This document shows, in pieces, positions 7,493 to 56,236 of a stretch of DNA of 64,000 nt. Every line of letters begins with the position of its first letter. Positions within the stretch are counted from its first letter, which is position 1. The stretch spans positions 6,899 through 70,898 of the forward strand of contig CAYXZA010000001.1 in the NCBI GenBank assembly GCA_964469605.1, in the 5' to 3' direction. Both the position numbers and the translations under genes were made by a program. This DNA is from an uncultured Candidatus Saccharibacteria bacterium (GTDB taxonomy: Bacteria; Patescibacteriota; Minisyncoccia; Phycocordibacterales; DATDWN01). Under the pieces are notes generated by a model. The model did no database searches and had not been told where the DNA came from. It was given only the letters and a program-made list of their open reading frames with translations.

Positions 7493-8569
7493 ATGAAAAA
7501 GACAAAAAAAGAAAGTAAGCCAGTAAAAAATACAAGTAGGATAGAAGATGCATTAAAAGAGATAAAAAGTCGTTTTGGTGATGATGCCATAATGACACTC
7601 GGAGAAAAACCAAAAGTCAACATAGATGCAATACCAACAGGATCAGTTGGACTTGATGCAGCACTTGGAGTATATGGAATGCCAAGAGGTAGAATAGTTG
7701 AAATATTTGGACCAGAATCAAGTGGAAAAACTACCCTATCCCTTCATGTTATAGCCGAAGCTCAAAAAAAAGATGGTATATGTGCTTTTATAGATGCTGA
7801 GCATGCCCTAGATCCTGAATATGCTAAAAGGATTGGAGTTAATATAGAAGAACTTTTAATATCTCAACCCGACAATGGCGAACAAGCACTTGAAATAGTT
7901 GATTCACTTGTCAGATCTGGAAAAATAGATGTTATTGTTGTTGACTCCGTAGCAGCACTTACACCAAGAGATGAAATAGAGGGAGATATGGGAGCGATGC
8001 ATGTAGGAAAACAAGCAAGACTTATGTCTCAAGCTCTTAGAAAACTGACAGCAATAGTTGCAAAATCAAAAACAGTTGTTATCTTTCTAAACCAAATCAG
8101 AATGCAAATCGGAGTAATGTTTGGAAATCCAGAGACAACACCAGGAGGAAAAGCTTTAAAATTTTACACATCTGTTAGGATAGACATAAGGAGGATTGCT
8201 CAGATCAAAAAAGGAGAAGATGTGATGGGTGGAAGAGTTAGGGTTAAAGTTGTAAAAAACAAAGTAGCAGCTCCATTTAAGCAAACAGAGTTTGATCTTA
8301 TGTATAACGAAGGTATATCCAAAGAAGGAGAAATAATCGCACTTGGTGAAAAAATGAAAATTATTGAAAAATCTGGATCAAGTTATAGTTATGGAGAATT
8401 AAAGCTCGGTAGAGGTTACGATTCCACAAGACAATTTTTGAAAGAAAATAAAAACATTTCAGATGAAATCTTGAAAAAAATAAAAGAAAAATTAGATGAA
8501 AATGGTGGTTCAATATCCCCTGTCTCTGAAAAAGAAGTTGAGGATAAAGAAGAAGCACCAGAGGAATAA
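7493..8569 (+). CDS. recA: Recombinase RecA
   Basis: GPESSGKTT Walker A, the FIDAEHALD motif, and the L2 loop region are all present. Overall collinearity with RecA proteins. Confidence 0.95.
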
Positions 8570-8580
8570 AAAACGAAAAA

Positions 8581-8700
8581 GCCGCGGGTTTTAATCCGCG
8601 GCTAAAACTAGGACCATCGGCGGTATTCCCGCCAAAACGTCCTTGATTTTTCCATCCGGCGAGCTCGCCGGAATGCTTCCTCGCCTTCAGCGAGAAAGCT
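8581..8700. other. GC-rich multi-hairpin element (copy 1 of 2) downstream of recA; possible structured ncRNA or compound terminator
   Basis: Four hairpins in a row: gccgcgg/ccgcggc; ggcgg/ccgcc; the palindrome ccggcgagctcgccgg; tcgc/gcga. The linker aaaacgtccttgat is shared with the element at 41400-41605. Confidence 0.3.
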
Positions 8701-8826
8701 AAGAATTTTGATGAACAAATTCATATTACAATTATATCAAATTAAATACAAAATGTCAATGGTATGTTTTTAACAATATACTATATAATTTTTCGGTATT
8801 ATAATTAGATTTAATATATATAAACT

Positions 8827-9402: not shown

Positions 9403-9455
9403 AAAACACAAAAAGGAAAATATATACAGAGCAGTTTAAGATATATTCCGTAAAA

Positions 9456-9546
9456 GCATAGTATTTAGAGACTTGCGAGCGCGACTGGCACGAGCACGAG
9501 GAATTTTTCAGTAGAAAAATATCCGTGCTCTAAATATTATGCTTTT
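9456..9546. repeat. Nested long hairpin downstream of efp
   Basis: The arms aaaagcatagtatttagag / ctctaaatattatgctttt pair over 18 of 19 positions. They enclose an inner gagcacg/cgtgctc hairpin. The 5' arm motif taaaagcat..tatttagag recurs at 49586. Confidence 0.35.
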
Positions 9547-9573
9547 ATAAGGCAAATACGAGTAGTTTTTTAT

Positions 9574-9725
9574 TTTCAAACGAAGCGAGCGAAATAAGAA
9601 AGTATTCTTTCTTATTTCCGAGTGCAGTGTAGAAAACAAAATATTCCACAGCTTGCTACGGAGATAAACCGTGAGCGAAGCGAACACCCTTTGGGTCCAT
9701 GGCTCTGCCCTGGGGTTTAACACCT
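9574..9725 (+). repeat. Intergenic repeat family 1, copy A (5' module with a 12 bp hairpin plus a 3' ...ggggtttaacacc module)
   Basis: Contains ttttcaaacgaagcgagcgaaataagaaagtattctttcttatttccgag ... gtgagcgaagcgaacaccctttgggtccatggctctgccctggggtttaacacc. Other copies are at 41605, 46734 and 44701 (reverse strand). Confidence 0.5.
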
Positions 9726-9742
9726 TTTATTTTTAAACTTAT

Positions 9743-26165: not shown

Positions 26166-26267
26166 AAATCTAATACAATAATGAAGCCTCGCTCCCGATG
26201 AATCGGAAACGAGGCCGAGGACCAAGGTCAAAGTGTCTAAAAAATCACAGTGACCTAGCCCAAAGAA

Positions 26268-26909
26268 CTAACTTTCGAGATAAGCCGAAAAATGCCAGCT
26301 ATGCCACCGATCGCTGAGCCGACGCACGCGCCAGTGCCACTGACCTCCAACCGAGCACAAGTACAGAACGCAACGCCCGCCATCCGGATTACGGAGAATG
26401 GTTCCGAAGAAATCGAGATATTTGATACCTCGCTCCCTTCGGAGATTCTCCAAAACGGAGGCGCTGCCTCTGGACTTGTAGTCCACAAGGAGAGCCTCTC
26501 CGACCAGGGCGTCGAGGACGATCTTGCCTGACTTCTTAAGCTGGGCAAACTTTTCCTCTCCGGTGATACTCGTCTCGCCGGGATGGAGAAAGGTCTCGAA
26601 ATTCGCCCAATCCACCTCTTTCAAAGCAAGACTGTCGAGGTCTTGCTCCATATCCCCATAGAGACCATCACCATTGGCTGGACCCCTCCAAATGGTCCAG
26701 CCGGGACCAATGAAGGTGGTTGGGTTGAACTTCTTTGTGCGGTCTATGGCGAGCACTGGGCTCACCACCCAACAAGCCTCCTTCCGGAGGAATTTTTTGA
26801 ACTCTCTGAGCCACCGCTCGCCGTCCTCCCCGGCGAGATTGACGATTAAATGATTCAGCAGTCCGGAGTTAAACTCACGGAGTGCTTTGAAGAGCATGGT
26901 GTTGTCCAT
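26268..26909 (-). CDS. GC-rich island paralog 1 (unknown function; Trp-rich C-terminal domain)
   Basis: Its GC-rich codon usage contrasts with the host. It shares about 140 aa of C-terminal homology with the 27208-28074 product (FNPTTFIGPGWTIW...GEEKF..LKKSGKI..DA...FFGTILRNPDGGRCVLYL...W.WRV). Confidence 0.55.
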   Translation of the reverse strand: MDNTMLFKALREFNSGLLNHLIVNLAGEDGERWLREFKKFLRKEACWVVSPVLAIDRTKKFNPTTFIGPGWTIWRGPANGDGLYGDMEQDLDSLALKEVDWANFETFLHPGETSITGEEKFAQLKKSGKIVLDALVGEALLVDYKSRGSASVLENLRRERGIKYLDFFGTILRNPDGGRCVLYLCSVGGQWHWRVRRLSDRWHSWHFSAYLES

Positions 26910-26955
26910 GGTCTTTTTCCTTTCTGCCAGAGGACCATCTTTAATCTTGTTGGAT

Positions 26956-27002
26956 GGTCATAGCCAAAAAATGCCTACTTTAAGCATTTTTTGGCTATGA
27001 CC
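26956..27002 (-). promoter_or_regulatory. Conserved 5'UTR hairpin (19 bp stem) between promoter and start codon of paralog 1
   Basis: ggtcatagccaaaaaatgc-ttaaagta-gcattttttggctatgacc is a perfect inverted repeat. A nearly identical copy is at 29036-29082. Confidence 0.5.
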
Positions 27003-27064
27003 AAGTCTAAAATTAAAATTTGTCCTACTTGGGGGGTTTGGGGGTTGCCCGAATTTCTCATCCA

Positions 27065-27093
27065 ATTATATCATATTTAGATATAAAAGTCAA
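27065..27093 (-). promoter_or_regulatory. Near-consensus sigma70 promoter driving paralog 1
   Basis: Read on the minus strand: TTGACT, a 17 nt spacer, TATAAT. Confidence 0.55.
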
Positions 27094-27121
27094 TAAATAA
27101 ATTTGTAGGATTAAGAAAAGA

Positions 27122-27151
27122 CCCTGCATCTCTGTACAAGCAGATGCAGGG
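27122..27151 (-). terminator. Hairpin terminator after paralog 2
   Basis: The 10 bp stem ccctgcatct/agatgcaggg is followed, on the minus strand, by a tcttttctt T-rich tract. Confidence 0.5.
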
Positions 27152-27207
27152 CCCAAAGGGCTAAGGTCAAAGGGTTCAAGAAGGTCCCAGTGGCTTAGTC
27201 CAAAGAA

Positions 27208-28074
27208 CTAAATTGCGAGAACGGCGGATGGCTGTCGAATGTCCCAGTTGCCCATTAACCAGGACACGTTCCAGCGCCACCGACCCCTGCTCCAAAACAA
27301 GCACAGAACGTAACGGCCACCGACCGAGTCCCGAAGGACTGTGCCGTCAAAGAAGATGTAACGGGTGTTCCAGTTGACCCTCTCCTTCCACGACTCGGGA
27401 ATGAGGTGCTGGTTCTCCCAGAGCGTGAGGAAGATGTCGGCGTCCAAGCGAATGTAGTCCGATTCTTTGAGACGCCTGAGCTTCTCCTCGCCATTCACGT
27501 ACGTCTCGCCGTCCTTCAGCATCGTCACGTGCTGAACCTTCGTCAGGTCCAGTTCGGTGAGTGCGATGGATCGAGTGTCTGTCTCGTCCACCCAGATGTT
27601 CCAACCTTGGCCGATTAATAATGAATTGGGATTGAAGCGACCATGGTTGATTGGGATGATCTTCGACTCGCCGACGATGATCTTTCCACCGTTCTTGAGG
27701 AACGCCGTGAACTGTCTGCCAGCTTCCTTCGGGTTACGGACGATGAAGTCCTGAAGCCCCGAGTTAGCGAAGTCAATCGTTGCCCAATCAGTATTCACAG
27801 CCAGAGTGGCGATAACCTGATGGGATTGGTCAATTTGGCCGATTAATGAATTGGGATTGAAGCGACCATGGTTGATTGGGATGATCTTCGACTCGCCGAC
27901 GATGATCTTTCCACCGTTCTTGAGGAACGCCGTGAACTGTCTGCCAGCTTCCTTCGGGTTACGGACGATGAAGTCCTGAAGCCCCGAGTTAGCGAAGTCA
28001 ATCGTTGCCCAATCAGTATTCACAGCCAGAGTGGCGATAACCTGATGGGATTGGTCAATAGTGATTTGTCCCAT
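27208..28074 (-). CDS. GC-rich island paralog 2 (unknown function) containing an internal 75-aa tandem duplication
   Basis: Residues ~1-76 and ~77-152 are near-identical (IDQSHQVIATLAVNTDW...GRFNPNSL). The C-terminal domain is homologous to paralog 1 (FFDGTVLRDSVGGRYVLCLFWSRGRWRWNV). The start codon is preceded by a strong SD (caaggagatagacaATG). Confidence 0.55.
   Translation of the reverse strand: MGQITIDQSHQVIATLAVNTDWATIDFANSGLQDFIVRNPKEAGRQFTAFLKNGGKIIVGESKIIPINHGRFNPNSLIGQIDQSHQVIATLAVNTDWATIDFANSGLQDFIVRNPKEAGRQFTAFLKNGGKIIVGESKIIPINHGRFNPNSLLIGQGWNIWVDETDTRSIALTELDLTKVQHVTMLKDGETYVNGEEKLRRLKESDYIRLDADIFLTLWENQHLIPESWKERVNWNTRYIFFDGTVLRDSVGGRYVLCLFWSRGRWRWNVSWLMGNWDIRQPSAVLAI
27608..28060. 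repeat. Tandem direct duplication of about 225 bp (two copies, one 3 nt indel) inside paralog 2
   Basis: Plus-strand ORFs 27643-27846 and 27868-28119 translate identically. The DNA at 27608-27835 nearly equals 27836-28060. Confidence 0.8.
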
Positions 28075-28221
28075 TGTCTATCTCCTTGTGTGCAAGAGGG
28101 CGACTGTATGTCGCCGTAGCTGGGAAAGCCCTATATAAATTACTTTTTTGTAAGACTCTTTCAGCTATGGCGATTTTTTTGAAGATCAGATATGTTTAAG
28201 ACTTTGCAAATTTCTTATCGA

Positions 28222-28250
28222 ATTATATCATATTTAGATTAAAAAGTCAA
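28222..28250 (-). promoter_or_regulatory. Near-consensus sigma70 promoter driving paralog 2
   Basis: Read on the minus strand: TTGACT, a 17 nt spacer, TATAAT. Confidence 0.55.
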
Positions 28251-28278
28251 TAAATAAATTTGTAGGATTAAGAAAAGA

Positions 28279-28308
28279 CCCTGCATCTCTGTACAAGCAG
28301 ATGCAGGG
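28279..28308 (-). terminator. Hairpin terminator after paralog 3
   Basis: The same ccctgcatct/agatgcaggg hairpin as at 27122, followed by a T-rich tract. Confidence 0.5.
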
Positions 28309-28364
28309 CCCAAAGGGCTAAGATCAAAGGGTCCAAGAAGGTCCCAGTGACCAGAGCCAAAGTG

Positions 28365-28952
28365 CTACTTGCGACGAACGAACACGAAGCGACTGTAACC
28401 GTCCCAGAGGGTGTCCCACTTACCGTTGCCATTCAACCAACGACCATCCTCGCCGTGTACAACGTGGAACACGTTAGGATAGCCGTCCGAGTCCGAAATC
28501 GGTTTCATCCCGATGAGTAACCACTCTCCCTTCGGCTGGTCCTTGTACTGCAAACGCAGTTGAGGACCAACTTCAGAAGGACAGAGTTCCAGACCGAGTG
28601 AAATCGCTCGCTCGTAGATGTCGCCACGTGTGGCACCATCATTGAAGCCGAGCTCGGCAACGGAGACATTGACGAGGGGGAGCTCCATCTCGGTTTCGCT
28701 CGCCGTGAAGGCGGGCTTGCCGAGAATGTCGTTACCCCAATTCCCGATTTTGAAGCCCCCGTCCTTGAGTGCCTTTCGGAAATCATCGGCGATCTTCAGT
28801 CCCGTGCCAAGCTTCACCGTCTTCCAAATGGTGAACTGTGGAACCGATAGGGTCAGCTCACCCGAGAGGAAGCGGCGAACGCCGTCCATCCCACCGAGCT
28901 TGTTGACTATTGCTTCTATCTGACCAAGAGTTAATTCCCCGTATTTCATCAC
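28365..28952 (-). CDS. GC-rich island paralog 3 (unknown function)
   Basis: GC-rich. Its C-terminal ~40 aa (DGYPNVFHVVHGEDGRWLNGNGKWDTLWDGYSRF) resemble the paralog 1/2 C-terminal motif more weakly. It carries the same promoter, UTR and terminator cassette. Confidence 0.5.
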   Translation of the reverse strand: MMKYGELTLGQIEAIVNKLGGMDGVRRFLSGELTLSVPQFTIWKTVKLGTGLKIADDFRKALKDGGFKIGNWGNDILGKPAFTASETEMELPLVNVSVAELGFNDGATRGDIYERAISLGLELCPSEVGPQLRLQYKDQPKGEWLLIGMKPISDSDGYPNVFHVVHGEDGRWLNGNGKWDTLWDGYSRFVFVRRK

Positions 28953-29035
28953 TCTCTCTCCTTATCGGCTGATTGCCGATGGACTTCCCACTGCCCGTGG
29001 GTTTAGGGTTAGAGCTAGAGGACAACCACATTGGT

Positions 29036-29082
29036 AGTCATAGCCAAAAAATGCCTACTTTAAGCATTTTTTGGCTATGACC
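29036..29082 (-). promoter_or_regulatory. Conserved 5'UTR hairpin of paralog 3
   Basis: agtcatagccaaaaaatgc...gcattttttggctatgacc, a copy of the hairpin at 26956. Confidence 0.45.
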
Positions 29083-29144
29083 AAGTCTAAAATTAAAATT
29101 TGTCCTACTTGGGGGGTTTGGGGGCTTCTGAAATTTCTTATCCA

Positions 29145-29173
29145 ATTAGATCATATTTAGATTAAAAAGTCAA
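29145..29173 (-). promoter_or_regulatory. Sigma70-like promoter driving paralog 3
   Basis: Read on the minus strand: TTGACT, a 17 nt spacer, TCTAAT. Confidence 0.45.
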
Positions 29174-29192
29174 TAAATAAATTCAGAAGATT

Positions 29193-30872
29193 TTACATCT
29201 CCTCTGGAGTTTTTATACCAAGAAGCCAAAGTCCTGACTGCATAGTTTCTTTGAAAACTTCTATTAAGAAGATTTTATATGGAGAATTTTTATCATCTTT
29301 GTCTACTATTTTTTCTTTTGCATAAAAACTATTAAACTCACCTGAAAGCTCTATCAGATATGTACTTATGTATTGTGGAGCATATTTTAGTCCCGCTCTT
29401 TCTATAACAGAATAAAATCTCTCTAAAAGTTTTTCTAGTTTTGTTACTTTCCAATCTTCTGGAATCAAATCACCTGAAACCAAAGACAGATCATTTGCTT
29501 TTTTTAATATAGAATTTGCTCTGACAGCTGAATATTGTAAATAAGGACCAGAATCCCCTTCAAAAGAAAGTGATTTATTGAAATCAAAAATAATATCAGA
29601 ACCGATTGATTGTTTTAATATAGAATATTTTATAGCACCAATAGCAACCATCTGAGCAATTTCTTTTTTCTTTTCATCTGAAAACTCTCTGTCTTTCATT
29701 TTTTCTAATGTTTTTTCTTTAACCTGATTTATCATTGACTCTGCTGTTATAACATTACCAGTTCTACTAGACATCTTTCCTTCTGGGAGTTTTAACATCC
29801 CATGAGATATATGTTTTAATTTACCTTTTCTTGATGGCATAACTTCACCTATGGCAACCTCTACCACATCAAAAAAACTATCTTGCTCATTTGCTGTTAC
29901 GGTAATAGATAAATCATAATCAAAATTTTCTTTTTTTATGAAAGCAAGACCAACTTCTTTTGCTTCATAAGTTGGCAATCCGTCGCTGTTTAAAAAAACT
30001 CTGGTATGAGTTTTAGGTATAAAATTTTCACCTTTAAATATCACTGCTCCACTATCACCTTTTTCAAAAACTTTACCAATATTTTCAGATACAACTTTTT
30101 TACCAATCTCCCCTGACTGACTTTCTAAAAAATGAAAATTAAAATGACTATCTAGTTTTTTATAAATTTCTTCAAAAAACTCAAAACTTTTTTTTATACC
30201 TTCTTTGTATATTAAATTTATATAACTATCAGATTCTTCATATATTTTCTTATTAATTTCATTTATTTCACTTTTTTCCACAAGGTTTTCATAAAATATA
30301 TTTCCTACTGCATAAGCTTTTTTAAAATCATCTGTTTTTTTATTGAAAATAGCCCACACAGCTTTTGCTATATGAATACCTTTATCACCGTGATAAGTAG
30401 CAACTTGCACATCCGCTCCAAGTGTCTTAATAAGTCTTGATATTGACTCACCAATTGCATTGTTCATTAAATGTCCAATGTGAAATTCTTTAAACGGATT
30501 TGGTTGAGTATGTTCTATAAAAATCTTCTTTCCTTTCAAATTGCTCGGTAAACCCTCACCTTTTTTAGTCCTCTTTAAACAATCCCTTATATATTCTTTT
30601 GTTAAAAAGAAATTCAAAAAACCATTTGGTGCAACTTCAACTTTTTCAATTTCTTTTATTTTTTGATTATTTAATTTTTCTACAAATTCAGCGGATAAAG
30701 TCTTTAAATCCTTACCCTCTTTTTTTGCCATCATCAAAGCTACGGTGCTAGAGTAGTCACCAAAAGAAAGGTTTTGATTTGGTTCAATAGAAAAATCAGT
30801 ATCTAAACCCAAAACCTCGGCTATCCATTTTTTTATTATACTTTCTGTCATTTTATTTTCCAGATGAACCAA
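29193..30872 (-). CDS. argS: Arginyl-tRNA synthetase
   Basis: A class I HIGH motif (FHIGHLMNNAIGE) and a C-terminal DALR anticodon-binding-like region. Length 559 aa. Confidence 0.9.
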   Translation of the reverse strand: MVHLENKMTESIIKKWIAEVLGLDTDFSIEPNQNLSFGDYSSTVALMMAKKEGKDLKTLSAEFVEKLNNQKIKEIEKVEVAPNGFLNFFLTKEYIRDCLKRTKKGEGLPSNLKGKKIFIEHTQPNPFKEFHIGHLMNNAIGESISRLIKTLGADVQVATYHGDKGIHIAKAVWAIFNKKTDDFKKAYAVGNIFYENLVEKSEINEINKKIYEESDSYINLIYKEGIKKSFEFFEEIYKKLDSHFNFHFLESQSGEIGKKVVSENIGKVFEKGDSGAVIFKGENFIPKTHTRVFLNSDGLPTYEAKEVGLAFIKKENFDYDLSITVTANEQDSFFDVVEVAIGEVMPSRKGKLKHISHGMLKLPEGKMSSRTGNVITAESMINQVKEKTLEKMKDREFSDEKKKEIAQMVAIGAIKYSILKQSIGSDIIFDFNKSLSFEGDSGPYLQYSAVRANSILKKANDLSLVSGDLIPEDWKVTKLEKLLERFYSVIERAGLKYAPQYISTYLIELSGEFNSFYAKEKIVDKDDKNSPYKIFLIEVFKETMQSGLWLLGIKTPEEM

Positions 30873-41318: not shown

Positions 41319-41399
41319 AAAATAATATTAACATTTCCACAGATTTTAAACAAAAAAGTTGACTTTTATTGCAAATGTTATTATATTTTTTACGGTATG

Positions 41400-41605
41400 C
41401 TAATTTCGAGAGAAAAGTTCCGGGAACTTCAAATGAAGTTCCCGAAACAAAAGTTCCTTGATGCTCCCCCACGATGGTGGGGGAGCGAAATCATGGAGGG
41501 GCGGGAAATCGCCCCTCAAAAGGAGGTGGAAGAAGAAAAATGACCCGAAGTGGGTCGGGGGTGTCAGACCGCAAGCGACCCCCGACCCACTTGCGGGTTT
41601 TTTAT
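41400..41605. other. GC-rich multi-hairpin element (copy 2 of 2); candidate structured ncRNA ending in a terminator-like hairpin plus T-run
   Basis: Four hairpins: gttccgggaactt/aagttcccgaaac; gctcccccac-gatg-gtgggggagc; gaggggcg/cgcccctc; cgaagtgggtcggggg...cccccgacccacttgcg followed by tttttt. The linker aaaagttccttgat is shared with the element at 8581-8700. Confidence 0.4.
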
Positions 41606-41740
41606 TTTCAAACGAAGTGAGTGAAGTAAGAGAGTAGTCTTTCTTACTTCCGAGCGAGTGCAGGAAAAGATCTCTTTTCAAACGAAGTGAGCGAAGCGAA
41701 CATTCTTTGGGTCCAAGGCTCTGTCTTGGGGTTTAATACC
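41605..41740 (+). repeat. Intergenic repeat family 1, copy B
   Basis: Its hairpin is gaagtaagagag...ctttcttacttc. Relative to copy A (gaaataagaaag/ctttcttatttc) it carries compensatory A-T to G-C changes. The 3' module is gtgagcgaagcgaacattctttgggtccaaggctctgtcttggggtttaatacc. Confidence 0.5.
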
Positions 41741-41760
41741 CTTTTTATTTTTTTAATTTT

Positions 41761-44700: not shown

Positions 44701-44770
44701 AATAAAAGGTTAAACCCCAGAGTAGAGCCCTAGACACAAAGGGTGTTCGCCTTGCTCACGGTTTATCTTA
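44701..44770 (-). repeat. Intergenic repeat family 1, copy D (3' module only, reverse orientation)
   Basis: The reverse complement reads ...aaccgtgagcaaggcgaacaccctttgtgtctagggctctactctggggtttaacc. Confidence 0.4.
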
Positions 44771-46717: not shown

Positions 46718-46733
46718 TTTTATTTTCAAACGA

Positions 46734-46873
46734 AGTGAGCGAAATAAGAAAGTACTCTTTCTTATTTCCGAGCATAGTGTAGAAAACAAAATACTCCATA
46801 GTTTTATTATGGAGTATTTTATAATCTTAATTTATATCATTTAAGGTCAAAAGCTCTGTCCAAGGTTTAATAC
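46734..46873 (+). repeat. Intergenic repeat family 1, copy C (intact 5' module; degenerate 3' module; extra 11 bp hairpin)
   Basis: ttttcaaacgaagtgagcgaaataagaaagtactctttcttatttccgag... then aatactccata/tatggagtatt ... ctctgtccaaggtttaatac. Confidence 0.45.
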
Positions 46874-46878
46874 ATCTC

Positions 46879-49497
46879 TTATTTATTTCCACAAGTTATA
46901 TAACTAATCTTTCCTCTTGTTATAGATCCAACAAAACCAGTTGGAGATATACCATTATCACTTTGAAATCTTTTTACAGCTTGAAATGTTAATATTCCAA
47001 AATAACCAGTTGGTTCTGAATTCAAATAACCTTTAAACTGCAAGAAATCTTGTAAAGCAGAAACTTCTTGGTTTGTTGTAATATCTTTTGATCTGTATCT
47101 AAGATTATTTTGTAAGTTCAAACAAGAACCAGCAGATTGATCCTGTGTATCCACATCACCAACAACAGGGTCATGTTGATTTACAGTTGGAGTTGTTGAT
47201 GGTGTTTGTACAGTAAGTATATTAGCTGAACTTAAAACAGTTAAATAAACTGCACTACTAATAGCTGAACCTTCACCTACTTGAATAGAATGTGATCCAA
47301 TGGAAATGTTTGATGGAACTGTAAATGTTATAGAGGTTGGAGATATAAAACTTGTATTAGACTTAATTGAATTACCATCAATAGAAACATAAGTGTTGTA
47401 GTTAAAATTTGTCCCAGAAACAGTAACTTGACCACCTTGTAAAGCATACATTGGACTTATTGATGAGATTGTTGGAGCTTTTAGGAAATTATCATTTATA
47501 CCTGAAAAATTAGATGAGAGAGTTTCAACAATATTTATAGTAAAGAAATTACTAAGAGGACCAGAACCTTCAACCACTTGAACAGTATGTGATCCAAAAG
47601 AAATATTTGGTGGAAGTATGAATTTAAGAGAAGTCTTTGAAACAACATCAAAAGTTGGCTTGATTACATATCTTCCATTATCAATATAGACATAAGTTTT
47701 ATCACTAAAATTTGTTCCAGAAACATAAACAGTAGATCCTTGTAAAATATTAGATGTTGGACTTATTGAAGATATTGTTGGATTTTGTGAAGCTGAAACA
47801 ACAGTTAAATAAACTGGGTTGCTAAGGGGAAGACCAGATCCTGTCTCACCTACTTGTATAGTATGTGATCCAACAGAAAGATTTGATGGAACTGAAAATG
47901 TTATAGCAGTTGGAGATATAGAATTAGGTGTAATTGTCTGACTTCCATTATTTACAGATATGTAAGTTTTGTTGGTAAAGTTTGTTCCGTAAATATGAAC
48001 TGAACCACCTACAAAAGCTGATGTTGGAGACATTGATGAGATTGTTGGATTTTGTGATGAAACAACATTTAAATTAACCGCATTGCTAAGTGGAAAATTA
48101 GATGCTTTTTCACTAACTTGAACAGTATGAGTACCCATACTAATATTTGATGGAACTACAAAACTAATTGATGTGTCAGAAATCAAAGTTGGAGTAATTG
48201 TTTGTCCGTATGCTCCATCTAAAGCAACAAAAATACCTTGATTGAAATTTGTTCCGTAGATATAAACTAAACTGCCCGGTAAAGCTGATGTTGGAGACAT
48301 TGAAGATATTGTTGGAGGTTGAGGTGAGACAACATTTAAATTAACTATGTTACTAAATGGAAGCACAGATGACAAAACACCAACACTAACAGTATGTGAT
48401 CCAACAGAAAGGTTTGATGGAACTGTAAATTTAAGAGTAGTTGGAGATATAAAATTAGGTGTAATTCTTTGACCGTTACTATCAAAAGCAACGACAGTAT
48501 TATTGGTAAAATTTGTTCCGTAGATATAAACTTCATTTCCTAATAAAACCGATGTTGGACTTATTGAAGATATTGTTGGATTTTGTGAAGCTGAAACAAC
48601 AGTTAAATAAACTGGGTTGCTAAGGGGAAGACCAGATCCTGTCTCACCTACTTGTATAGTATGTGATCCAACAGAAAGATTTGATGGAACTGAAAATGTT
48701 ATAGCAGTTGGAGATATAGAATTAGGTGTAATTGTCTGACTTCCATTATTTACAGATATGTAAGTTTTGTTGGTAAAGTTTGTTCCGTAAATATGAACTG
48801 AACCACCTACAAAAGCTGATGTTGGAGACATTGATGAGATTGTTGGATTTTGTGATGAAACAACATTTAAATTAACCGCATTGCTAAGTGGAAAATTAGA
48901 TGCTTTTTCACTAACTTGAACAGTATGAGTACCCATACTAATATTTGATGGAACTACAAAACTAATTGATGTGTCAGAAATCAAAGTTGGAGTAATTGTT
49001 TGTCCGTATGCTCCATCTAAAGCAACAAAAATACCTTGATTGAAATTTGTTCCGTAGATATAAACTAAACTGCCCGGTAAAGCTGATGTTGGAGACATTG
49101 AAGATATTGTTGGAGGTTGAGGGGTTGTAGTATTTCCAATTGAAAAGACTCCACTTATAGCACCAGTTTGAGATGGTCCTTGAAAATTTACAGTATAAGA
49201 ACCAGCTGGAATATCTGTTGGAACTGTCCAATTAAATTGAGAACTACTTGTATTTATTGAACCTAAATATTTTGGACCATTTACACCAAGACTACGACCA
49301 TAAAGATAAATTGAATAGCCACTTATTGGATTAAAAGAAGAGTCAAAATCCCAACCAGACCACTTGAAACTATATGTCTGTCCTGAAACAAGATTCTCTC
49401 CCCCAGTTGGATATAAAATAGTAAAAGGGCCACCGCCAGCATAGACTGATCCGGAAAACAAAAAACTGAAAATAAAAATGCCTAGTATTTTTTTCAT
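46879..49497 (-). CDS. Surface protein with about 8 IPT/TIG-like repeats and a C-terminal peptidoglycan-binding-like domain
   Basis: A signal peptide is followed by repeated ~85 aa modules (PTISSMSPTSA..G..V.IYGTNF...). The C-terminus VKRFQSDNGISPTGFVGSITRGKI matches the PG-binding motif of the 57-3467 product. Confidence 0.6.
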   Translation of the reverse strand: MKKILGIFIFSFLFSGSVYAGGGPFTILYPTGGENLVSGQTYSFKWSGWDFDSSFNPISGYSIYLYGRSLGVNGPKYLGSINTSSSQFNWTVPTDIPAGSYTVNFQGPSQTGAISGVFSIGNTTTPQPPTISSMSPTSALPGSLVYIYGTNFNQGIFVALDGAYGQTITPTLISDTSISFVVPSNISMGTHTVQVSEKASNFPLSNAVNLNVVSSQNPTISSMSPTSAFVGGSVHIYGTNFTNKTYISVNNGSQTITPNSISPTAITFSVPSNLSVGSHTIQVGETGSGLPLSNPVYLTVVSASQNPTISSISPTSVLLGNEVYIYGTNFTNNTVVAFDSNGQRITPNFISPTTLKFTVPSNLSVGSHTVSVGVLSSVLPFSNIVNLNVVSPQPPTISSMSPTSALPGSLVYIYGTNFNQGIFVALDGAYGQTITPTLISDTSISFVVPSNISMGTHTVQVSEKASNFPLSNAVNLNVVSSQNPTISSMSPTSAFVGGSVHIYGTNFTNKTYISVNNGSQTITPNSISPTAITFSVPSNLSVGSHTIQVGETGSGLPLSNPVYLTVVSASQNPTISSISPTSNILQGSTVYVSGTNFSDKTYVYIDNGRYVIKPTFDVVSKTSLKFILPPNISFGSHTVQVVEGSGPLSNFFTINIVETLSSNFSGINDNFLKAPTISSISPMYALQGGQVTVSGTNFNYNTYVSIDGNSIKSNTSFISPTSITFTVPSNISIGSHSIQVGEGSAISSAVYLTVLSSANILTVQTPSTTPTVNQHDPVVGDVDTQDQSAGSCLNLQNNLRYRSKDITTNQEVSALQDFLQFKGYLNSEPTGYFGILTFQAVKRFQSDNGISPTGFVGSITRGKISYITCGNK
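47753..49122. repeat. Two near-identical ~572 bp direct repeats (47753-48324 and 48551-49122; 798 bp offset) within the IPT/TIG gene
   Basis: Long identical DNA stretches give identical antisense ORF translations, duplicating three IPT modules. Confidence 0.75.
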
Positions 49498-49613
49498 AAT
49501 TAAATATTTTGATTATTTACAATATGTTCAATTATACAATAAAAATAATATATTATCAAATACTATACTTATCCACAACTATCCCATAAAAGCATCATAT
49601 TTAGAGCAATGGC

Positions 49614-49771
49614 TGATTTTATTCGAGAAATACCCCGCAGCTTTGCTGTGGGGATTGGTAAAAGAGTGTCAGTGGTGGCCGACTCCTATACGAATATAAG
49701 AGCATTGGTTCGCCTCGCCAATACCTCGTCTGCTCTGCAGCGAGGATCAGGCGAGGCTACTGCTTTTATTT
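49614..49771 (+). repeat. Intergenic repeat family 2, copy 2 (with inserted nested hairpin gcctcgcc...ggcgaggc and a T-run)
   Basis: tgattttattcgagaaataccccgcagctttgctgtggggattgg ... gcctcgccaatacctcgtctgctctgcagcgaggatcaggcgaggctactgcttttattt. Confidence 0.4.
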
Positions 49772-51577
49772 AAAACCACTTGCTTGGATATTGAATAATT
49801 GATGATATAGTGATTTGTTTTTTATAAGAACCTTATGTGTCCCCTCTTCTTTTAACTGACCGTCTTCTAGAACTATTATATGATCACATTCTTTTATCAT
49901 AGAAAAATCATGTGATACTAATATTATGGTTTGATTGTTTGGTAAAGTATTTAATGATTGAAATATTTTTGCTTCAGATTCTGCATCCACAGAAGCCGTT
50001 GGTTCATCTAAAACCATTACAAAACCATTTCTATATAAAATTTTTGCAATAGCCAACTTCTGCTTTTGTCCTTTTGAAGGTTCAACTCCTTTAAATTCAA
50101 CTCCAATCTGATGGTCATATCCATCTTCCCATTTTTCAACAAATTCACTTACCTGACTTATTTTAGATGATTTTACAACAAGCTCATCATCAATAGGAAC
50201 ATTTGACCTACCAATAGCAATAGCTTGTTTTACTTTAAAATCATAACTGGCATAATCTTGTAACATAACAGAAAGATAACTCCACCACTTATCTAAATCA
50301 ACATCTTTTAGATCAATACCATTTATTAAAATCCTTCCTTCTGTTGGATCATACACCCTACAAAGTAGTTTTATAAGTGTCGTCTTCCCAGCACCATTGT
50401 TCCCAACCAAACCAATCTTAAAACCACCTTTGAAAATTAAGTTTAAATTTTTTAAGACAAATTTTTCATCTTTTTGATTTGGATATTTGAAACTAACATT
50501 TTCAAATACTATATCAGGAGGGTTTTTCAAATCAAGATCAACTGGATTTTCACTTCTTTTTACAAAAGGTTTTGTATTAAATACCTGCAACAAATCACCT
50601 ACTATCATATTTTGTTCAAGAGATTGTGATAATTGTGAAATAAAATCTACAAAATAAGCACTTATATTATCAAGTGTTCTTAAAATATATATCATTGAAC
50701 CAATCATTATAATACCAGACAACACATCCCTAAACACTAAATAAAAAGAGAGGGTAAAACCTAATAGATAAATTATTTCTGCAATAAAAGTATATGATGT
50801 TTTTGATTTTTCAACTGAAATTTGCTTTTTATTGAAGTTTTCAAGTATCTCTTTTGACCATGAAAGAAGTATGTCTTTGCTTTGTAGAAGTTTTGTTTCT
50901 ATTAAATTACTTTTTGATACAAAATGCATTCTTATATCAGAAAATCTTCTTTGTTCGGGAGAATCTTTTGCCCAAATACTATAAACACTTTTACCATAAC
51001 GATACTGAACAAAAAAACTGGGCAAAGAAGATAATATAATTATAAAATAAACCCACGGATTAAATATTGTAGCTAAAATAGAACCAACTATAAAAAATAT
51101 AAGTGCCCTAATTACACCAAAATTGGACTGCCAAAATTCTAAGATAGGCCAAAAACTTTGCCTAAAAGCTCTTTGGTATAAATCTTGAAATTCTGAGTCT
51201 TCATAATGAGCTATATCTATAACCTCTCTTTTTCTTATAGATTCAACTTCCATAAAAGAAGAAAATTTATATCTAGCAATTTTATTATAATAATTTACAA
51301 TACTTGAAATTAAAGATGGTAGTGAATTTAACAATGCATAAATAGAAAAAACATAAAATAAACTTGATTGAAAACTAAAAGAATTGCTTTTTGAAACATA
51401 TAAAGAAACTTCATTTATTAACAATCCTAAATAGTATGCTGATAGATATGGAAAAGATGCCCTAATAAATGTAAGAAAAAATATAATACTAACCTCTTTT
51501 TTAGATACAGACCAAAAATAACGAAAAGATTCTCTTGAATTCTTTATATAGCTTTTAAAATTATTTTTCTTATCCAT
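49766..51577 (-). CDS. ABC transporter, fused permease/ATP-binding (exporter type, MsbA-like)
   Basis: N-terminal transmembrane domain. Walker A (GLVGNNGAGKTTL), signature LSKGQKQKL and Walker B (VLDEPTASVD). Confidence 0.85.
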   Translation of the reverse strand: MDKKNNFKSYIKNSRESFRYFWSVSKKEVSIIFFLTFIRASFPYLSAYYLGLLINEVSLYVSKSNSFSFQSSLFYVFSIYALLNSLPSLISSIVNYYNKIARYKFSSFMEVESIRKREVIDIAHYEDSEFQDLYQRAFRQSFWPILEFWQSNFGVIRALIFFIVGSILATIFNPWVYFIIILSSLPSFFVQYRYGKSVYSIWAKDSPEQRRFSDIRMHFVSKSNLIETKLLQSKDILLSWSKEILENFNKKQISVEKSKTSYTFIAEIIYLLGFTLSFYLVFRDVLSGIIMIGSMIYILRTLDNISAYFVDFISQLSQSLEQNMIVGDLLQVFNTKPFVKRSENPVDLDLKNPPDIVFENVSFKYPNQKDEKFVLKNLNLIFKGGFKIGLVGNNGAGKTTLIKLLCRVYDPTEGRILINGIDLKDVDLDKWWSYLSVMLQDYASYDFKVKQAIAIGRSNVPIDDELVVKSSKISQVSEFVEKWEDGYDHQIGVEFKGVEPSKGQKQKLAIAKILYRNGFVMVLDEPTASVDAESEAKIFQSLNTLPNNQTIILVSHDFSMIKECDHIIVLEDGQLKEEGTHKVLIKNKSLYHQLFNIQASGFK

Positions 51578-53877: not shown

Positions 53878-53926
53878 CCTTAAACGAACTAAACGGCTTT
53901 GAAAAAGCCGTTTAGTTCGTTTAAGG
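53878..53926. repeat. Near-perfect 23 bp-stem palindrome between tRNA-Val and the left TIR
   Basis: ccttaaacgaactaaacggcttt-gaaaa-agccgtttagttcgtttaagg. Confidence 0.7.
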
Positions 53927-54124
53927 TGCATTTATATTACCAAATCCGAACCTATTTTGAAAATCTATAAAATGGATGAATTTTTGCGAAATATATTTTC
54001 TAGGGAAAGGATTCGCAAAAATTCGGCTAGTGTTTTCTGAAATGTGGACTCGCCCGCCCGCAGAAAGGGGTCTGGGGAATGAATGCGGGCGGGTTTCGGG
54101 TTTTTTGTTTTTGGCGAGGCGGGC
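53925..54124 (+). repeat. Left terminal inverted repeat
   Basis: See the element above. Contains the GC hairpin cccgcccgca...tgcgggcggg. Confidence 0.7.
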
Positions 54125-54508
54125 TTCAAAAGAACTTGCAAAATACCGAATCGTATACTATCATACCCGTATGAGTTTTTCAGTTAAATTTTCCGCAAAT
54201 TACTATTATACCCGCCCTGTGGGACGGTCTTCTTTTTGTTAACTGATTTTTACTAAAAACAGAGCACAAAAGACCGCCCCAAAGGCGGTCTTTTGTTTAT
54301 TACTTACACATTATGATTCTAAAAAAATTACAAACAAATAGCATTTATTATTACGGCTCTTTGCAAGAGACTTGTTTCAAGGTGCCGAAATAATTTTTTT
54401 AAAATTTCGACTCCTCCAACTGGTCTCTTGCGAGACCAGTTTTTATTTGGGTGAAGGAATCTACCCATGCAAGTGATTCCAAAATAGTTCTTTAAAAAGG
54501 AGGAGACC

Positions 54509-55036
54509 ATGAATAAAAAAGTGGTTCTCTTGGCAGGCTTACCTGGTGTGGGTAAGTCAACTCTGGCGCGAAAGATTGCCAACAAAGAGTGTGGCTTGGT
54601 TTTGGACATTGACGAAATTAAAAGAAAGATTGTCGATCCAAAACTCGTCACGTCAACCATTGACCCACCGGAAGTTAGGTGGCGATGTTACGAGGAAGCC
54701 GCGGAAAAGGTTTTCTTTCTCCTTGAAAAAGGAGCGTCTACAATTATTATGGACGAGGTATTTCATTTGGCGATTCTCCGCCAAAAACTGGAAGAACTTT
54801 TCCTTCAAAAAGGAATTGAAGTTTTCTGGTTGGAAGTACGTTGCTCACATGTCGAGGTTGAGCGACGGCTTCGTGAGAAATCTCGAAATGGACATATTCT
54901 CTCGACAGATGAGGCGTTGAAAATGAATCTTCTTTTCGAGGGAATCTTCGAAAGATTTCCTGAAGGAAAGAAAAATCATATCATCTTCAGAAATGAAGCT
55001 GGTTGTGATTTTGAAAAATTGGCATTCAACCCTTAA
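54509..55036 (+). CDS. P-loop NTPase kinase (AAA_33 / polynucleotide-kinase / zeta-toxin-like fold)
   Basis: Walker A VVLLAGLPGVGKSTLARKIA near the N-terminus, a DE Walker-B-like IIMDEVF, and a lid-like RRLREKSRNGH. It is preceded by a canonical SD (aaaaaggaggagaccATG). Confidence 0.6.
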   Translation: MNKKVVLLAGLPGVGKSTLARKIANKECGLVLDIDEIKRKIVDPKLVTSTIDPPEVRWRCYEEAAEKVFFLLEKGASTIIMDEVFHLAILRQKLEELFLQKGIEVFWLEVRCSHVEVERRLREKSRNGHILSTDEALKMNLLFEGIFERFPEGKKNHIIFRNEAGCDFEKLAFNP

Positions 55037-55045
55037 ATGGGTATT

Positions 55046-55088
55046 GAGGGTTGGTGCAGTGGAAACTTGCACCAACCCTCTTTTGTTG
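55046..55088 (+). terminator. Rho-independent terminator after the kinase gene
   Basis: gagggttggtgca-gtggaaact-tgcaccaaccctc followed by ttttgttg. Confidence 0.55.
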
Positions 55089-55126
55089 AATAAAATCTGA
55101 ATTACTAATATAATAAAAATATTCTT

Positions 55127-55840
55127 ATGACTAATACATTACAAAAAATCAAAAATCTTGCTCTAAAAATAGATAACGATATTGCTTTTGGTGGAAAGTC
55201 AAAAGGTAATAAGCATTTGCTTAGAGTTGTTAAGGTGGCAAAATTTCTCGCACAAAAAACTGGAGCAGATTTGTTTATAAGTATAGCTGGAGCGTATTTA
55301 CACGATACTGCCTTACCCTCTGGAAATGACTACAATTACAAAAATAATAAAGAAATAGTAAAAGATTTACTCAAATCTTTTACTATTTCCAAAAAAGAGC
55401 TAGATGGAATAGCGGAGTGCGTGGCTTCTCATGAAGGTACATTTAAGCCAAAAAGTTTAGAAGCAAAAGTTGTTCATGATTCAGATGTTCTTGAAAAAAC
55501 TGGATTATTGGGGATTATTCGTCACACATGGAAATTAACCAATTCGGGAAAGATTAATCATAAAAATATAACGGATAAAGATGTCAAATTAGTTATTGAC
55601 CATATAGATTGGCGTAGAAAAAAATTACAAACACCTATTGCAAAAAAGATTGCAAAATTTTTAACAATACCAATAAATAAAGAGAAAGCAAAAATCATTG
55701 TATCAATATCATCAGAATTAGCTTTCAATAGTGTTGTCACTGAAAAAATAGCTGTAGCTTTACGAAAACATTTAAACAAAAAAGAAAATGAAAAGCTCAA
55801 AGAGCAATTAAATTTAGCTTATTTGAATAAGTTTAAATAA
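55127..55840 (+). CDS. HD-domain metal-dependent phosphohydrolase
   Basis: Full HD pattern: H (NKHLLRV), HD (AYLHDTALP), H (VASHEGTF), H...D (VVHDSDVLEKTG). Confidence 0.7.
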   Translation: MTNTLQKIKNLALKIDNDIAFGGKSKGNKHLLRVVKVAKFLAQKTGADLFISIAGAYLHDTALPSGNDYNYKNNKEIVKDLLKSFTISKKELDGIAECVASHEGTFKPKSLEAKVVHDSDVLEKTGLLGIIRHTWKLTNSGKINHKNITDKDVKLVIDHIDWRRKKLQTPIAKKIAKFLTIPINKEKAKIIVSISSELAFNSVVTEKIAVALRKHLNKKENEKLKEQLNLAYLNKFK

Positions 55841-56038
55841 GCCCGCCTCGCCAAAAACAAAAACCCGAAGCCTGCGCGCATTCCTCCCCAGACCCCTCCT
55901 CCGCGCGGGCGAGTCCGAATTTCAAAAACAGATTAGCCGAATTTTTACGAATCCTTTCCCCAGAAAATATATTTCGCAAAAATTCGTCCATTTTATAGAT
56001 TTTCAAAATAGGTTCGGATTTGGTAATATAAATGCACC
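55841..56038 (-). repeat. Right terminal inverted repeat
   Basis: Reverse complement of the left TIR with scattered mismatches. Confidence 0.7.
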
Positions 56039-56236
56039 AGAATAGAACTTAACGATTTAGAACCTATTTGCAACTCTCGGAGGGAAATCTTCCACAAGTA
56101 AAACTTTTTCGTCAAAAAGTTTTCTCGTGTCCACGACTCGCGACCTAGCTTGCTAGCTGGGTACCCCGCTCCGTCTTTCGATTCCCTCTCGTAAAGCTCC
56201 ACTTTACTCTCGGCACAAAACAGCTTTGCAATTTTG

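Follow-up and report, generated by a model that had tools for sequence, protein, structure and literature searches.

Dual-function small RNAs (SgrS/SgrT, RNAIII/delta-haemolysin, SR1/SR1P) and type I toxin mRNAs, which are structured transcripts with a small open reading frame (ORF), combine RNA structure and coding capacity, and Rho-independent (bidirectional) terminators and repetitive extragenic palindromic (REP) or bacterial interspersed mosaic elements (BIME) are GC-rich intergenic palindromes. Leaderless small ORFs have been mapped in mycobacteria (PMC4633059), and polycysteine leaderless small ORFs are described as attenuators (bioRxiv 10.1101/834739). TIGR (tandem interspaced guide RNA) arrays of the TIGR-Tas systems (PMC12045711) are found among candidate phyla radiation (CPR) bacteria; they consist of 8-12-nt repeats and 9-nt spacers, repeated 5-15 times, beside a Tas gene with a Nop domain. 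Here we consider two GC-rich hairpin clusters in a 64,000-nt stretch (hereafter, the window; 31% GC) of an AT-rich Patescibacteria/Paceibacteria genome. The first, E1 (8570-8727, minus strand), is situated between recA and efp, and the second, E2 (41394-41605, plus strand), between the PAP2-folD operon and an RlmI-like methyltransferase gene. With a probability of about 0.55, we read them as two separate, non-homologous small transcription units that have the same general build and lie on opposite strands. The closest known kinds are the leaderless small ORFs and the dual-function small RNAs.

Similarly to the mycobacterial leaderless small ORFs, the AUG in E1 and E2 lies within a few nucleotides of the predicted transcript start, there is no Shine-Dalgarno (SD) sequence, and the ORF is shorter than 50 codons and unannotated. 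However, the mycobacterial ORFs usually head an operon and regulate it, whereas E1 and E2 are closed by a terminator, with no gene following them on their own strand; they are also built of GC hairpins, unlike their mycobacterial counterparts, and their starts are predicted from sequence alone. The dual-function small RNAs resemble them in being stand-alone, terminator-ended, highly structured units of approximately 150-210 nt with a short ORF, and in E2 both the RNA and the peptide appear to be constrained; they differ in that E1 and E2 start leaderless, the ORF being neither internal nor SD-led, bear no sequence relation to them, and have no identified pairing target or seed. A strong promoter, a short ORF, a folded mRNA, a patchy distribution and, for E1, insertion into a spacer are shared with the type I toxin mRNAs, but the peptides of E1 and E2, being charged and hydrophilic, are not membrane helices, and no antisense antitoxin RNA is evident.

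Several other known systems were compared and rejected. The order of hairpins, or variable segments, and motifs, the terminator at the end and the Patescibacteria host recall TIGR arrays, but there is no alternating-repeat periodicity, and the neighbours are recA, efp, PAP2 and the RlmI-like methyltransferase. Riboswitches and leader-peptide attenuators fail because no same-strand gene follows, the next gene past each terminator being convergent (recA for E1, the methyltransferase gene for E2). Signal recognition particle, 6S and RNase P RNAs have no covariance-model match and the wrong architecture, and retron non-coding RNA and integron attC sites were ruled out by neighbourhood and periodicity. 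Rfam 15, searched at both gathering and permissive thresholds with the window, both patches, the repeats termed R and S, a further patch at 49.6 kb and 16 related loci, yielded tRNAs only; the best sub-threshold matches for the patches (models of snoRNAs, miRNAs and a Brucella small RNA) were far under the threshold. ARAGORN found no transfer-messenger RNA.

Build of the two units

The predicted elements of E1 are as follows.

8731-8759, minus strand: E1 promoter, TTGACA, 17 nt, TATAAT, with TG before the -10 box; 12/12 consensus match
8608-8724, minus strand: E1 ORF, 38 codons and stop, MNLFIKILSFLAEGEEAFRRARRMEKSRTFWREYRRWS; ATG 6 nt past the -10 box; contains three GC hairpins
8570-8603, minus strand: E1 intrinsic terminator, AGCCGCGG-loop-CCGCGGCT, then TTTTTCGTTTT; stem 8603-8580
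8574-8740, no strand: extent of the E1 insertion (approximately 165 nt) relative to the closest relative found (L177), from the alignment

The predicted elements of E2, and the repeat copy that adjoins it, are the following.

41359-41387, plus strand: E2 promoter, TTGACT, 17 nt, TATATT
41397-41543, plus strand: E2 ORF, 48 codons and stop, MLISREKFRELQMKFPKQKFLDAPPRWWGSEIMEGREIAPQKEVEEEK; ATG 9 nt past the -10 box
41417-41448, plus strand: hairpin H1, 14 pairs
41463-41486, plus strand: hairpin H2, GCUCCCCCAC-GAUG-GUGGGGGAGC; would encode APPRWWGS
41496-41517, plus strand: hairpin H3, GAGGGGCGG-GAAA-UCGCCCCUC
41518-41529, plus strand: conserved SD-like tract AAGGAGGUG, 6 codons before the stop in the window and 4-8 across the family
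41537-41605, plus strand: E2 terminator, a long GC hairpin (41537-41603), then T6; stop codon at its 5' foot
41600-41750, plus strand: copy of the dispersed repeat R, between the E2 terminator and the methyltransferase gene, outside E2

In the proposed build, each unit would start from a strong sigma-70-type promoter that overlaps a divergent housekeeping promoter region (that of efp for E1, that of the PAP2-folD operon for E2). As the AUG follows the -10 box by 6-9 nt, the mRNA would be leaderless or nearly so. An ORF of 38 (E1) or 48 (E2) codons, consisting largely of GC-rich hairpins, would come next, and its stop codon would be placed 0-4 nt before an intrinsic terminator facing the 3' end of the convergent gene (recA or the rlmI-like gene, respectively). 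We infer that the units are transcribed from these promoters and that their ORFs are translated; the predicted peptides include MLISREKFRELQMKFPK... and MNLFIKILSFLAEGEEAFR.... The hairpins presumably serve transcript stability, translation pacing or termination.

The E1 promoter is one of only two perfect matches with a 17-nt spacer within the 64 kb, and is partly superimposed on the -35 region of efp's divergent promoter. In E2, the -10 box partly coincides with a TATAAT on the minus strand, oriented towards the PAP2 gene. When both strands of the 64 kb were scanned for a promoter (at least 10/12 consensus positions) followed within 4-10 nt by the ATG of an ORF of 20-90 codons, only E2 (plus strand), E1 (minus strand) and one AT-rich site matched. 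The same orientations are seen in the terminators: a GC-rich stem-loop with a T-run on the transcribed strand is present in E1 on the minus strand and in E2 on the plus strand. The canonical terminator in the E1 region exists on the minus strand only, as the same hairpin has no T-run on the plus strand, and it adjoins the recA stop codon (8567-8569). In E2, the minus strand of H1 is a terminator-like site, followed by TTTTCTCTCG, and the A-run and T-run flanks of the terminal hairpin suggest that it could act both ways.

Both patches fold far beyond dinucleotide shuffles, against which their z-scores were computed, so the multi-hairpin structure described in the initial annotation is real. For E1, the z-score is -5.2 on the plus strand and -5.9 on the minus strand, the minus fold being better by 8 kcal/mol; for E2, the values are -10.5 (plus) and -11.3 (minus), with the plus fold better by 5 kcal/mol. 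The four plus-strand hairpins of E1 occupy positions 8580-8603, 8610-8643 (enclosing 8619-8633), 8655-8672 (with the 16-nt palindrome CCGGCGAGCTCGCCGG) and 8675-8699, and the E1 coding sequence (CDS) alone has a z-score of -5.8. In the minimum-energy fold of the window E2, the AAGGAGGUG tract pairs with UUCCUU (41454-41459); an alternative partner for this tract is the 3' arm of H3.

An SD-like motif (GGAG, GAGG, AGGA or AAGG) at positions -20 to -4 was observed in 0 of the 43 window genes, which suggests that initiation in this genome is generally SD-independent or leaderless; if initiation without SD is indeed the norm, a leaderless small ORF is plausible. Several gene starts in the window lie only a few nucleotides past -10-like boxes.

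Conservation of E2 and the constraint acting on it

The search for E2 orthologues was anchored on the adjacent RlmI-like methyltransferase (Pfam Methyltrans_SAM), with relatives at 86, 69, 68 and 56% identity. In the loci L165, L167-169 and L170-175 a small unit is situated directly downstream of the methyltransferase gene on the opposite strand, in the same orientation as in the window. PAP2 and folD also stand beside the unit in L165, the only contig reaching that far. Each orthologous unit comprises TTGACT, a spacer of 17-18 nt, a -10 box (TATATT in the window, L165 and L167; TATTTT in L170), an ATG, an ORF of 38-44 codons, GGAGGT, a stop codon and a GC hairpin followed by a T-run. The ATG is 6-9 nt past the -10 box in the window, L165, L167 and L170, in all of which frame 0 stays open until shortly before the terminator. 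The start GGTATG is common to the family, L170 having the ATG alone. The 3' arm of the terminator (CGACCC..TTGCGG..TTTTTTTATT) is largely kept in L164 (the 86% relative, with 50 nt available for comparison), L165 and L167, and differs in L170. The terminator adjoins the methyltransferase gene in the relatives; in the window, the 150-nt R repeat is inserted between them. Gene callers had annotated the orthologous ORFs in the relatives.

No E2 unit was found in relatives at 45-48% methyltransferase identity, and profile searches, word-indexed and exhaustive, of collections of 5.8 billion proteins and 1.84 billion representative proteins returned only the three known orthologues. Thus, the E2 family is confined to a subclade, and, judged from these loci, E2 is a vertically inherited gene of this subclade of Paceibacteria. 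The E2 peptide has no Pfam match.

If the ORF is translated, its frame should be conserved better than the others. For the window and L165, the BLOSUM62 local score was 85 in frame 0/0 and did not exceed 31 in any of the remaining eight frame pairs. In the other sequence pairs, frame 0/0 against the best other frame pair gave 41 vs at most 26, 57 vs 44, 61 vs 52 and 34 vs 33; the window and L170 showed no frame signal (25 vs 27), and overall frame 0/0 was the best in 5/6 pairs. Identity at the three codon positions was 0.64/0.68/0.34, although the protein-guided alignment inflates the values for positions 1 and 2, and 10/19 identical residues had different codons. The segment KFPK, for example, is AAG TTC CCG AAA in the window and AAA TTT CCC AAA in L165, and EGR is GAG GGG CGG and GAG GGA CGC, respectively, so that all differences in KFPK are synonymous. 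The indels between conserved anchors of the E2-family ORFs stay in frame.

At the same time, the structure is retained. The CDS-only fold z-scores of the four E2-family ORFs are -8.2, -3.8, -7.8 and -6.3. The hairpins H2 and H3 are found in the same place with different sequences across the family, and a hairpin at the H3 site is present in all four, at -13.8 to -20.5 kcal/mol. Between the window and L167, three double compensatory changes are seen in H2 and one in H3, as read by eye from the orthologue sequences and folds. The initial annotation had claimed covariation of the stems; the E2 orthologues do keep their stems via compensatory changes, whereas none can be inferred from a comparison of E1 with E2. 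As coding signals and RNA-structure signals are both present, the most likely reading of E2 is that of a gene for a small protein whose mRNA structure is strongly constrained, or else of a dual-function RNA. In the former case its product would be a small, largely disordered protein made from a highly structured mRNA. Of the earlier proposal of a functional structured non-coding RNA, the discrete, strongly structured and probably transcribed units stand; "non-coding" is doubtful for E2, given the conserved ATG-started ORF and the frame-specific conservation.

A number of observations weigh against this reading. The compensatory changes alter the encoded peptide, radically so where PPRWW becomes PGPWP, and also by replacing R with L and I with T. 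The GGAGGT tract is read in the window in a frame that differs from the one in the three relatives, which points to nucleotide-level rather than peptide-level constraint at this tract. Stop codons are sparse in GC-rich sequence, and one alternative frame of L170 is also open. AlphaFold yields for the E2 peptide a low-confidence N-terminal helix only (predicted local distance difference test score 58.7). The profile searches did not extend the family, so to say, beyond its known members, and with four distinct E2-family sequences the coding and covariation statistics are thin. Finally, the promoters and terminators were recognized by their match to a consensus, in a genome that is rich in AT.

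Some of these points would be expected if E2, and perhaps E1, were a regulatory small RNA that functions at the RNA level, with the ORF untranslated. Its function would then involve the conserved hairpins together with the conserved purine tract AAGGAGGUG(AU), and this tract could base-pair with sequences of the CCUCC type, the 3' tail of the 16S rRNA among them. The structure z-scores kept across the orthologues, the compensatory changes overriding the peptide sequence, the GGAGGT retained whatever the frame in a genome without SD usage, and the stand-alone character of the units, from promoter to terminator, all agree with such an RNA. Vice versa, an untranslated RNA would account neither for the frame-specific conservation, with only synonymous differences in KFPK and EGR and in-frame indels between the anchors, nor for the ATG at the predicted 5' end in all orthologues, and no target has been identified; we consider it unlikely.

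The other alternative is that the hairpins are passive punctuation, that is, stacked bidirectional terminators or insulators, the ORFs being accidents of stop-poor GC-rich sequence. The hairpins would then end the recA and methyltransferase mRNAs and stop antisense transcription from the bidirectional efp and PAP2 promoter regions. Indeed, both clusters are localized exactly between convergent and divergent genes, as perfect GC hairpins in spacers, and their terminal hairpins carry T-runs, as in terminators and REP elements. Each terminator adjoins the 3' end of the upstream gene, that of E2 is flanked by an A-run and a T-run, H1 reads as a terminator on the minus strand, and relatives lacking E1 manage with a 91-nt spacer. 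The codon usage also fits accidental ORFs: the host median GC content at third codon positions is 0.18, and 91% of its Arg codons are AGA/AGG (CGN, 8%), whereas CGN makes up 7/8 of the Arg codons in the E1 ORF and 3/4 in the E2 ORF, both far from the host usage. However, a single terminator would be enough for this purpose, and the internal hairpins, which are conserved, have no T-runs. As further differences from terminators and REP elements, E1 and E2 are unrepeated, in contrast to R beside E2, and a promoter and an ORF belong to the single-copy, orthologous locus of E2. Punctuation also leaves unexplained the frame-0-specific conservation of E2 with synonymous third-position changes and the ATG conserved right past the promoter in four lineages. 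Passive punctuation thus seems to us an improbable explanation.

E2-type units, and perhaps E1, could conceivably be translation-sensing switches, an idea to which we assign very little weight. The leaderless small ORF would be translated through the conserved hairpins, and, in an organism otherwise without SD sites, 9-11 conserved nucleotides matching the 3' tail of 16S (AAGGAGGUGAU) would hold the ribosome. The ribosome would then stop 0-4 nt ahead of the terminator stem, and its occupancy would decide between terminator formation and antisense read-through into the convergent rRNA-methyltransferase gene (for E1, recA). If true, this would be a new ribosome-capacity-dependent control of convergent transcription in reduced CPR genomes.

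E1 as a lineage-specific insertion unrelated to E2

The RecA identity to species representatives reaches 85% at most, the nearest being metagenome-assembled genomes of Paceibacteria/Parcubacteria, e.g. Zambryskibacteria and Taylorbacteria. Exact-protein matches were found only in GCA_013565695.1 and two Logan assemblies, all identical to the window; the genome occurs in the runs SRR10036063 and SRR10036056. In L177, where EF-P is 91% identical, the recA-efp spacer has 91 nt and no E1, and its flanks are approximately 90% identical to those in the window. The flanks include TGTCAA, the -35 box of E1, which is kept in relatives, while the -10 box is inside the insertion. E1 is thus a lineage-specific insertion of approximately 165 nt with the same design as E2, and its product would be either a peptide or an RNA.

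Among the 160 recA loci of relatives, the recA-efp synteny was common in the 80 genome loci examined, with spacers from 8 to >1000 nt. Neither E1 nor its peptide was found by blastn or tblastn in any of the 160 recA loci or the other related loci (175 loci in total), and there was no E1 match in viral contigs, phages or plasmids. The E1 sequence is a single one, and its codons are atypical of the host. E1 has no comparative support, which weighs against the preferred reading. On the other hand, L179 and L181 (EF-P 84% identical) have a different unit in the same slot and orientation, with TTGACT-17-TATAAT, an ATG after 6 nt, 46 codons and a terminator (L179 2282-2850; L181 97-432). Its leaderless, GC-rich ORF would encode a hydrophobic peptide and fits the type I toxin class better than E1 and E2 do. 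The presence of a different unit at the same site indicates that the recA-efp slot repeatedly hosts small leaderless units.

Other spacers between recA and efp were observed to contain further units without an Rfam match: minus-strand ORFs of approximately 60 codons with an SD-like leader in L013 and L074, and a plus-strand, GC-rich promoter-to-terminator unit of approximately 150 nt in L005 and L012.

The insertion could also be a trace, without any function of its own, that was left by a small GC-rich element of mobile or foreign origin, similar to REP or to a miniature inverted-repeat transposable element (MITE). The insertion polymorphism between close relatives, the GC content of E1 (approximately 50-60% vs 31% in the genome), the true dispersed intergenic repeats nearby in the same genome and the behaviour of the spacer as a hotspot whose inserts differ by lineage would all be consistent with such an origin. 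Still, MITE and REP readings fail on the copy number, as E1 and E2 each occur once in the 64 kb, which are part of a contig of at least 138 kb; the E1 junctions show neither terminal inverted repeats nor a target duplication, and the searches of related loci, viral contigs, phages and plasmids listed above gave no match. A mere footprint would also hardly be expected to have a perfectly placed -10 box, start codon and terminator. We therefore regard it as quite unlikely, and retain the reading of E1 as a small transcription unit.

In the initial annotation, E1 and E2 were taken for two plus-strand copies belonging to a single family of structured non-coding RNAs, with a shared architecture, a conserved linker and covarying stems. 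The sequences quoted there are present where it placed them, and E2 does end in the long hairpin 41537-41603 with T6. It is also true that both patches are GC-rich and multi-hairpin, with a similar order of elements and a 14-mer in common with two mismatches, and that, as no known Rfam family matched, a new one was possible a priori. However, the similarity is at the chance level. The best local E1/E2 alignment scores 22 vs 17.4 +/- 2.5 in shuffles, 35/500 of which reach 22, and the reverse complement aligns equally well (score 21; 44/500 shuffles), so the shared architecture does not amount to kinship and the similarity has no preferred orientation. The "linker" 14-mer, when two mismatches are allowed, has 5 matches in the window vs 2.6 expected. 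It is not single-stranded in either fold, and its partners differ: GUCCU pairs with an upstream AGGAC in E1, and UUCCUU with a downstream AAGGAG in E2. The stems proposed to covary belong to hairpins that cannot be aligned, differ in length and loop, and hence are uninformative.

The comparison of families leads to the same result. A covariance model of the window E2 and its three orthologues gives 142 bits for E2 and 5.9 bits (E = 6) for the E1 region, which is one of approximately 200 noise matches. This model has only 9 base pairs since MAFFT misaligns the stems, the MAFFT/RNAalifold consensus being so small because the stems are re-registered between the orthologues. Profile comparison of the E1 and E2 peptides (hhalign) gave P = 0.18, i.e. 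no kinship. E1 has neither the GGTATG start nor the GGAGGT nor the partly conserved terminator arm of the E2 orthologues, and it was inserted recently, E2 by contrast being ancestral to its subclade. Besides, promoter, terminator and G-U evidence places E1 on the minus and E2 on the plus strand, so that the earlier same-strand alignment compares sense with antisense. E1 and E2 lack homology, and we consider their origin as paralogous copies of one RNA family highly improbable. Likeness of "architecture" between hairpin clusters is no evidence of homology.

Other repeats and islands, and the meaning of the units

The real repeat family in the window is R, not E1 and E2. This dispersed intergenic repeat is found at 9568-9734, 41600-41750 and 46718-46870 on the plus strand and at 44709-44768 on the minus strand. 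Its part A consists of TTTTATTTTCAAACGAAGYGAGYGAA and the hairpin GAAATAAGAAAG..CTTTCTTATTTC, and part B, of GTGAGCGAAGCGAACAYYCTTTGGGTCCAWGGCTCTG..GGGGTTTAAYACC and a T-run. R has no match in Rfam or in viral contigs, and it is missing from the orthologous sites of the closest relatives.

Nor are E1 and E2 the only GC-rich intergenic patches outside the islands, as had been supposed: the segments 9644-9729 and 49624-49771 likewise reach 60% GC. The region 49600-49770, between an ABC-transporter gene and a TIG-domain gene, forms a third GC-rich multi-hairpin cluster (fold z -5.1 on either strand) with a plus-strand ORF of 55 codons (49609-49776), no clear promoter and no Rfam match. The 20-mer TAAAAGCATnnTATTTAGAG occurs at its start (49587-49606) and also, in two inverted copies, on either side of a GC-rich core of 57 nt that lies between efp and rpsR (9451-9547), with 4 matches vs 0.28 expected; a core similar to the efp-rpsR one (gagcacgagg..cgtgctctaaa) is located upstream of the L167 orthologue of E2.

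Three GC-rich (53-68%) minus-strand ORFs without a Pfam match are situated at 26200-29200 (26268-26909, 27208-28074 and 28365-28952), each preceded by a near-identical AT-rich block with a TTGACT-17-TATAAT promoter; the second ORF contains an internal 225-nt exact tandem duplication. At 53909-56054, inverted repeats of approximately 130-200 bp (91% complementary) flank a 1.7-kb island with genes for an AAA_33 P-loop kinase-like protein and an HD-domain protein; given these flanks and the location between tRNA-Val and tRNA-Arg, the island may be a small mobile cassette. The minus-strand gene 46879-49497 encodes a protein of 872 aa with seven IPT/TIG repeats and a peptidoglycan-binding domain; within the gene, long and nearly identical stretches of DNA recur at a period of approximately 267 nt.

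Patescibacteria have tiny genomes, and almost nothing is known of their small RNAs and small proteins. On the reading preferred here, the two clusters would add one lineage-specific and one conserved unannotated small structured gene. E1 shows the turnover of small leaderless units in the recA-efp spacer between close relatives, and E2 would be a syntenically conserved gene whose CDS is a chain of conserved hairpins. The latter may serve as a compact case in which constraints on RNA structure and on coding overlap, in a genome that apparently initiates translation without SD sequences. More generally, GC-rich hairpin clusters in AT-rich genomes can conceal short ORFs.

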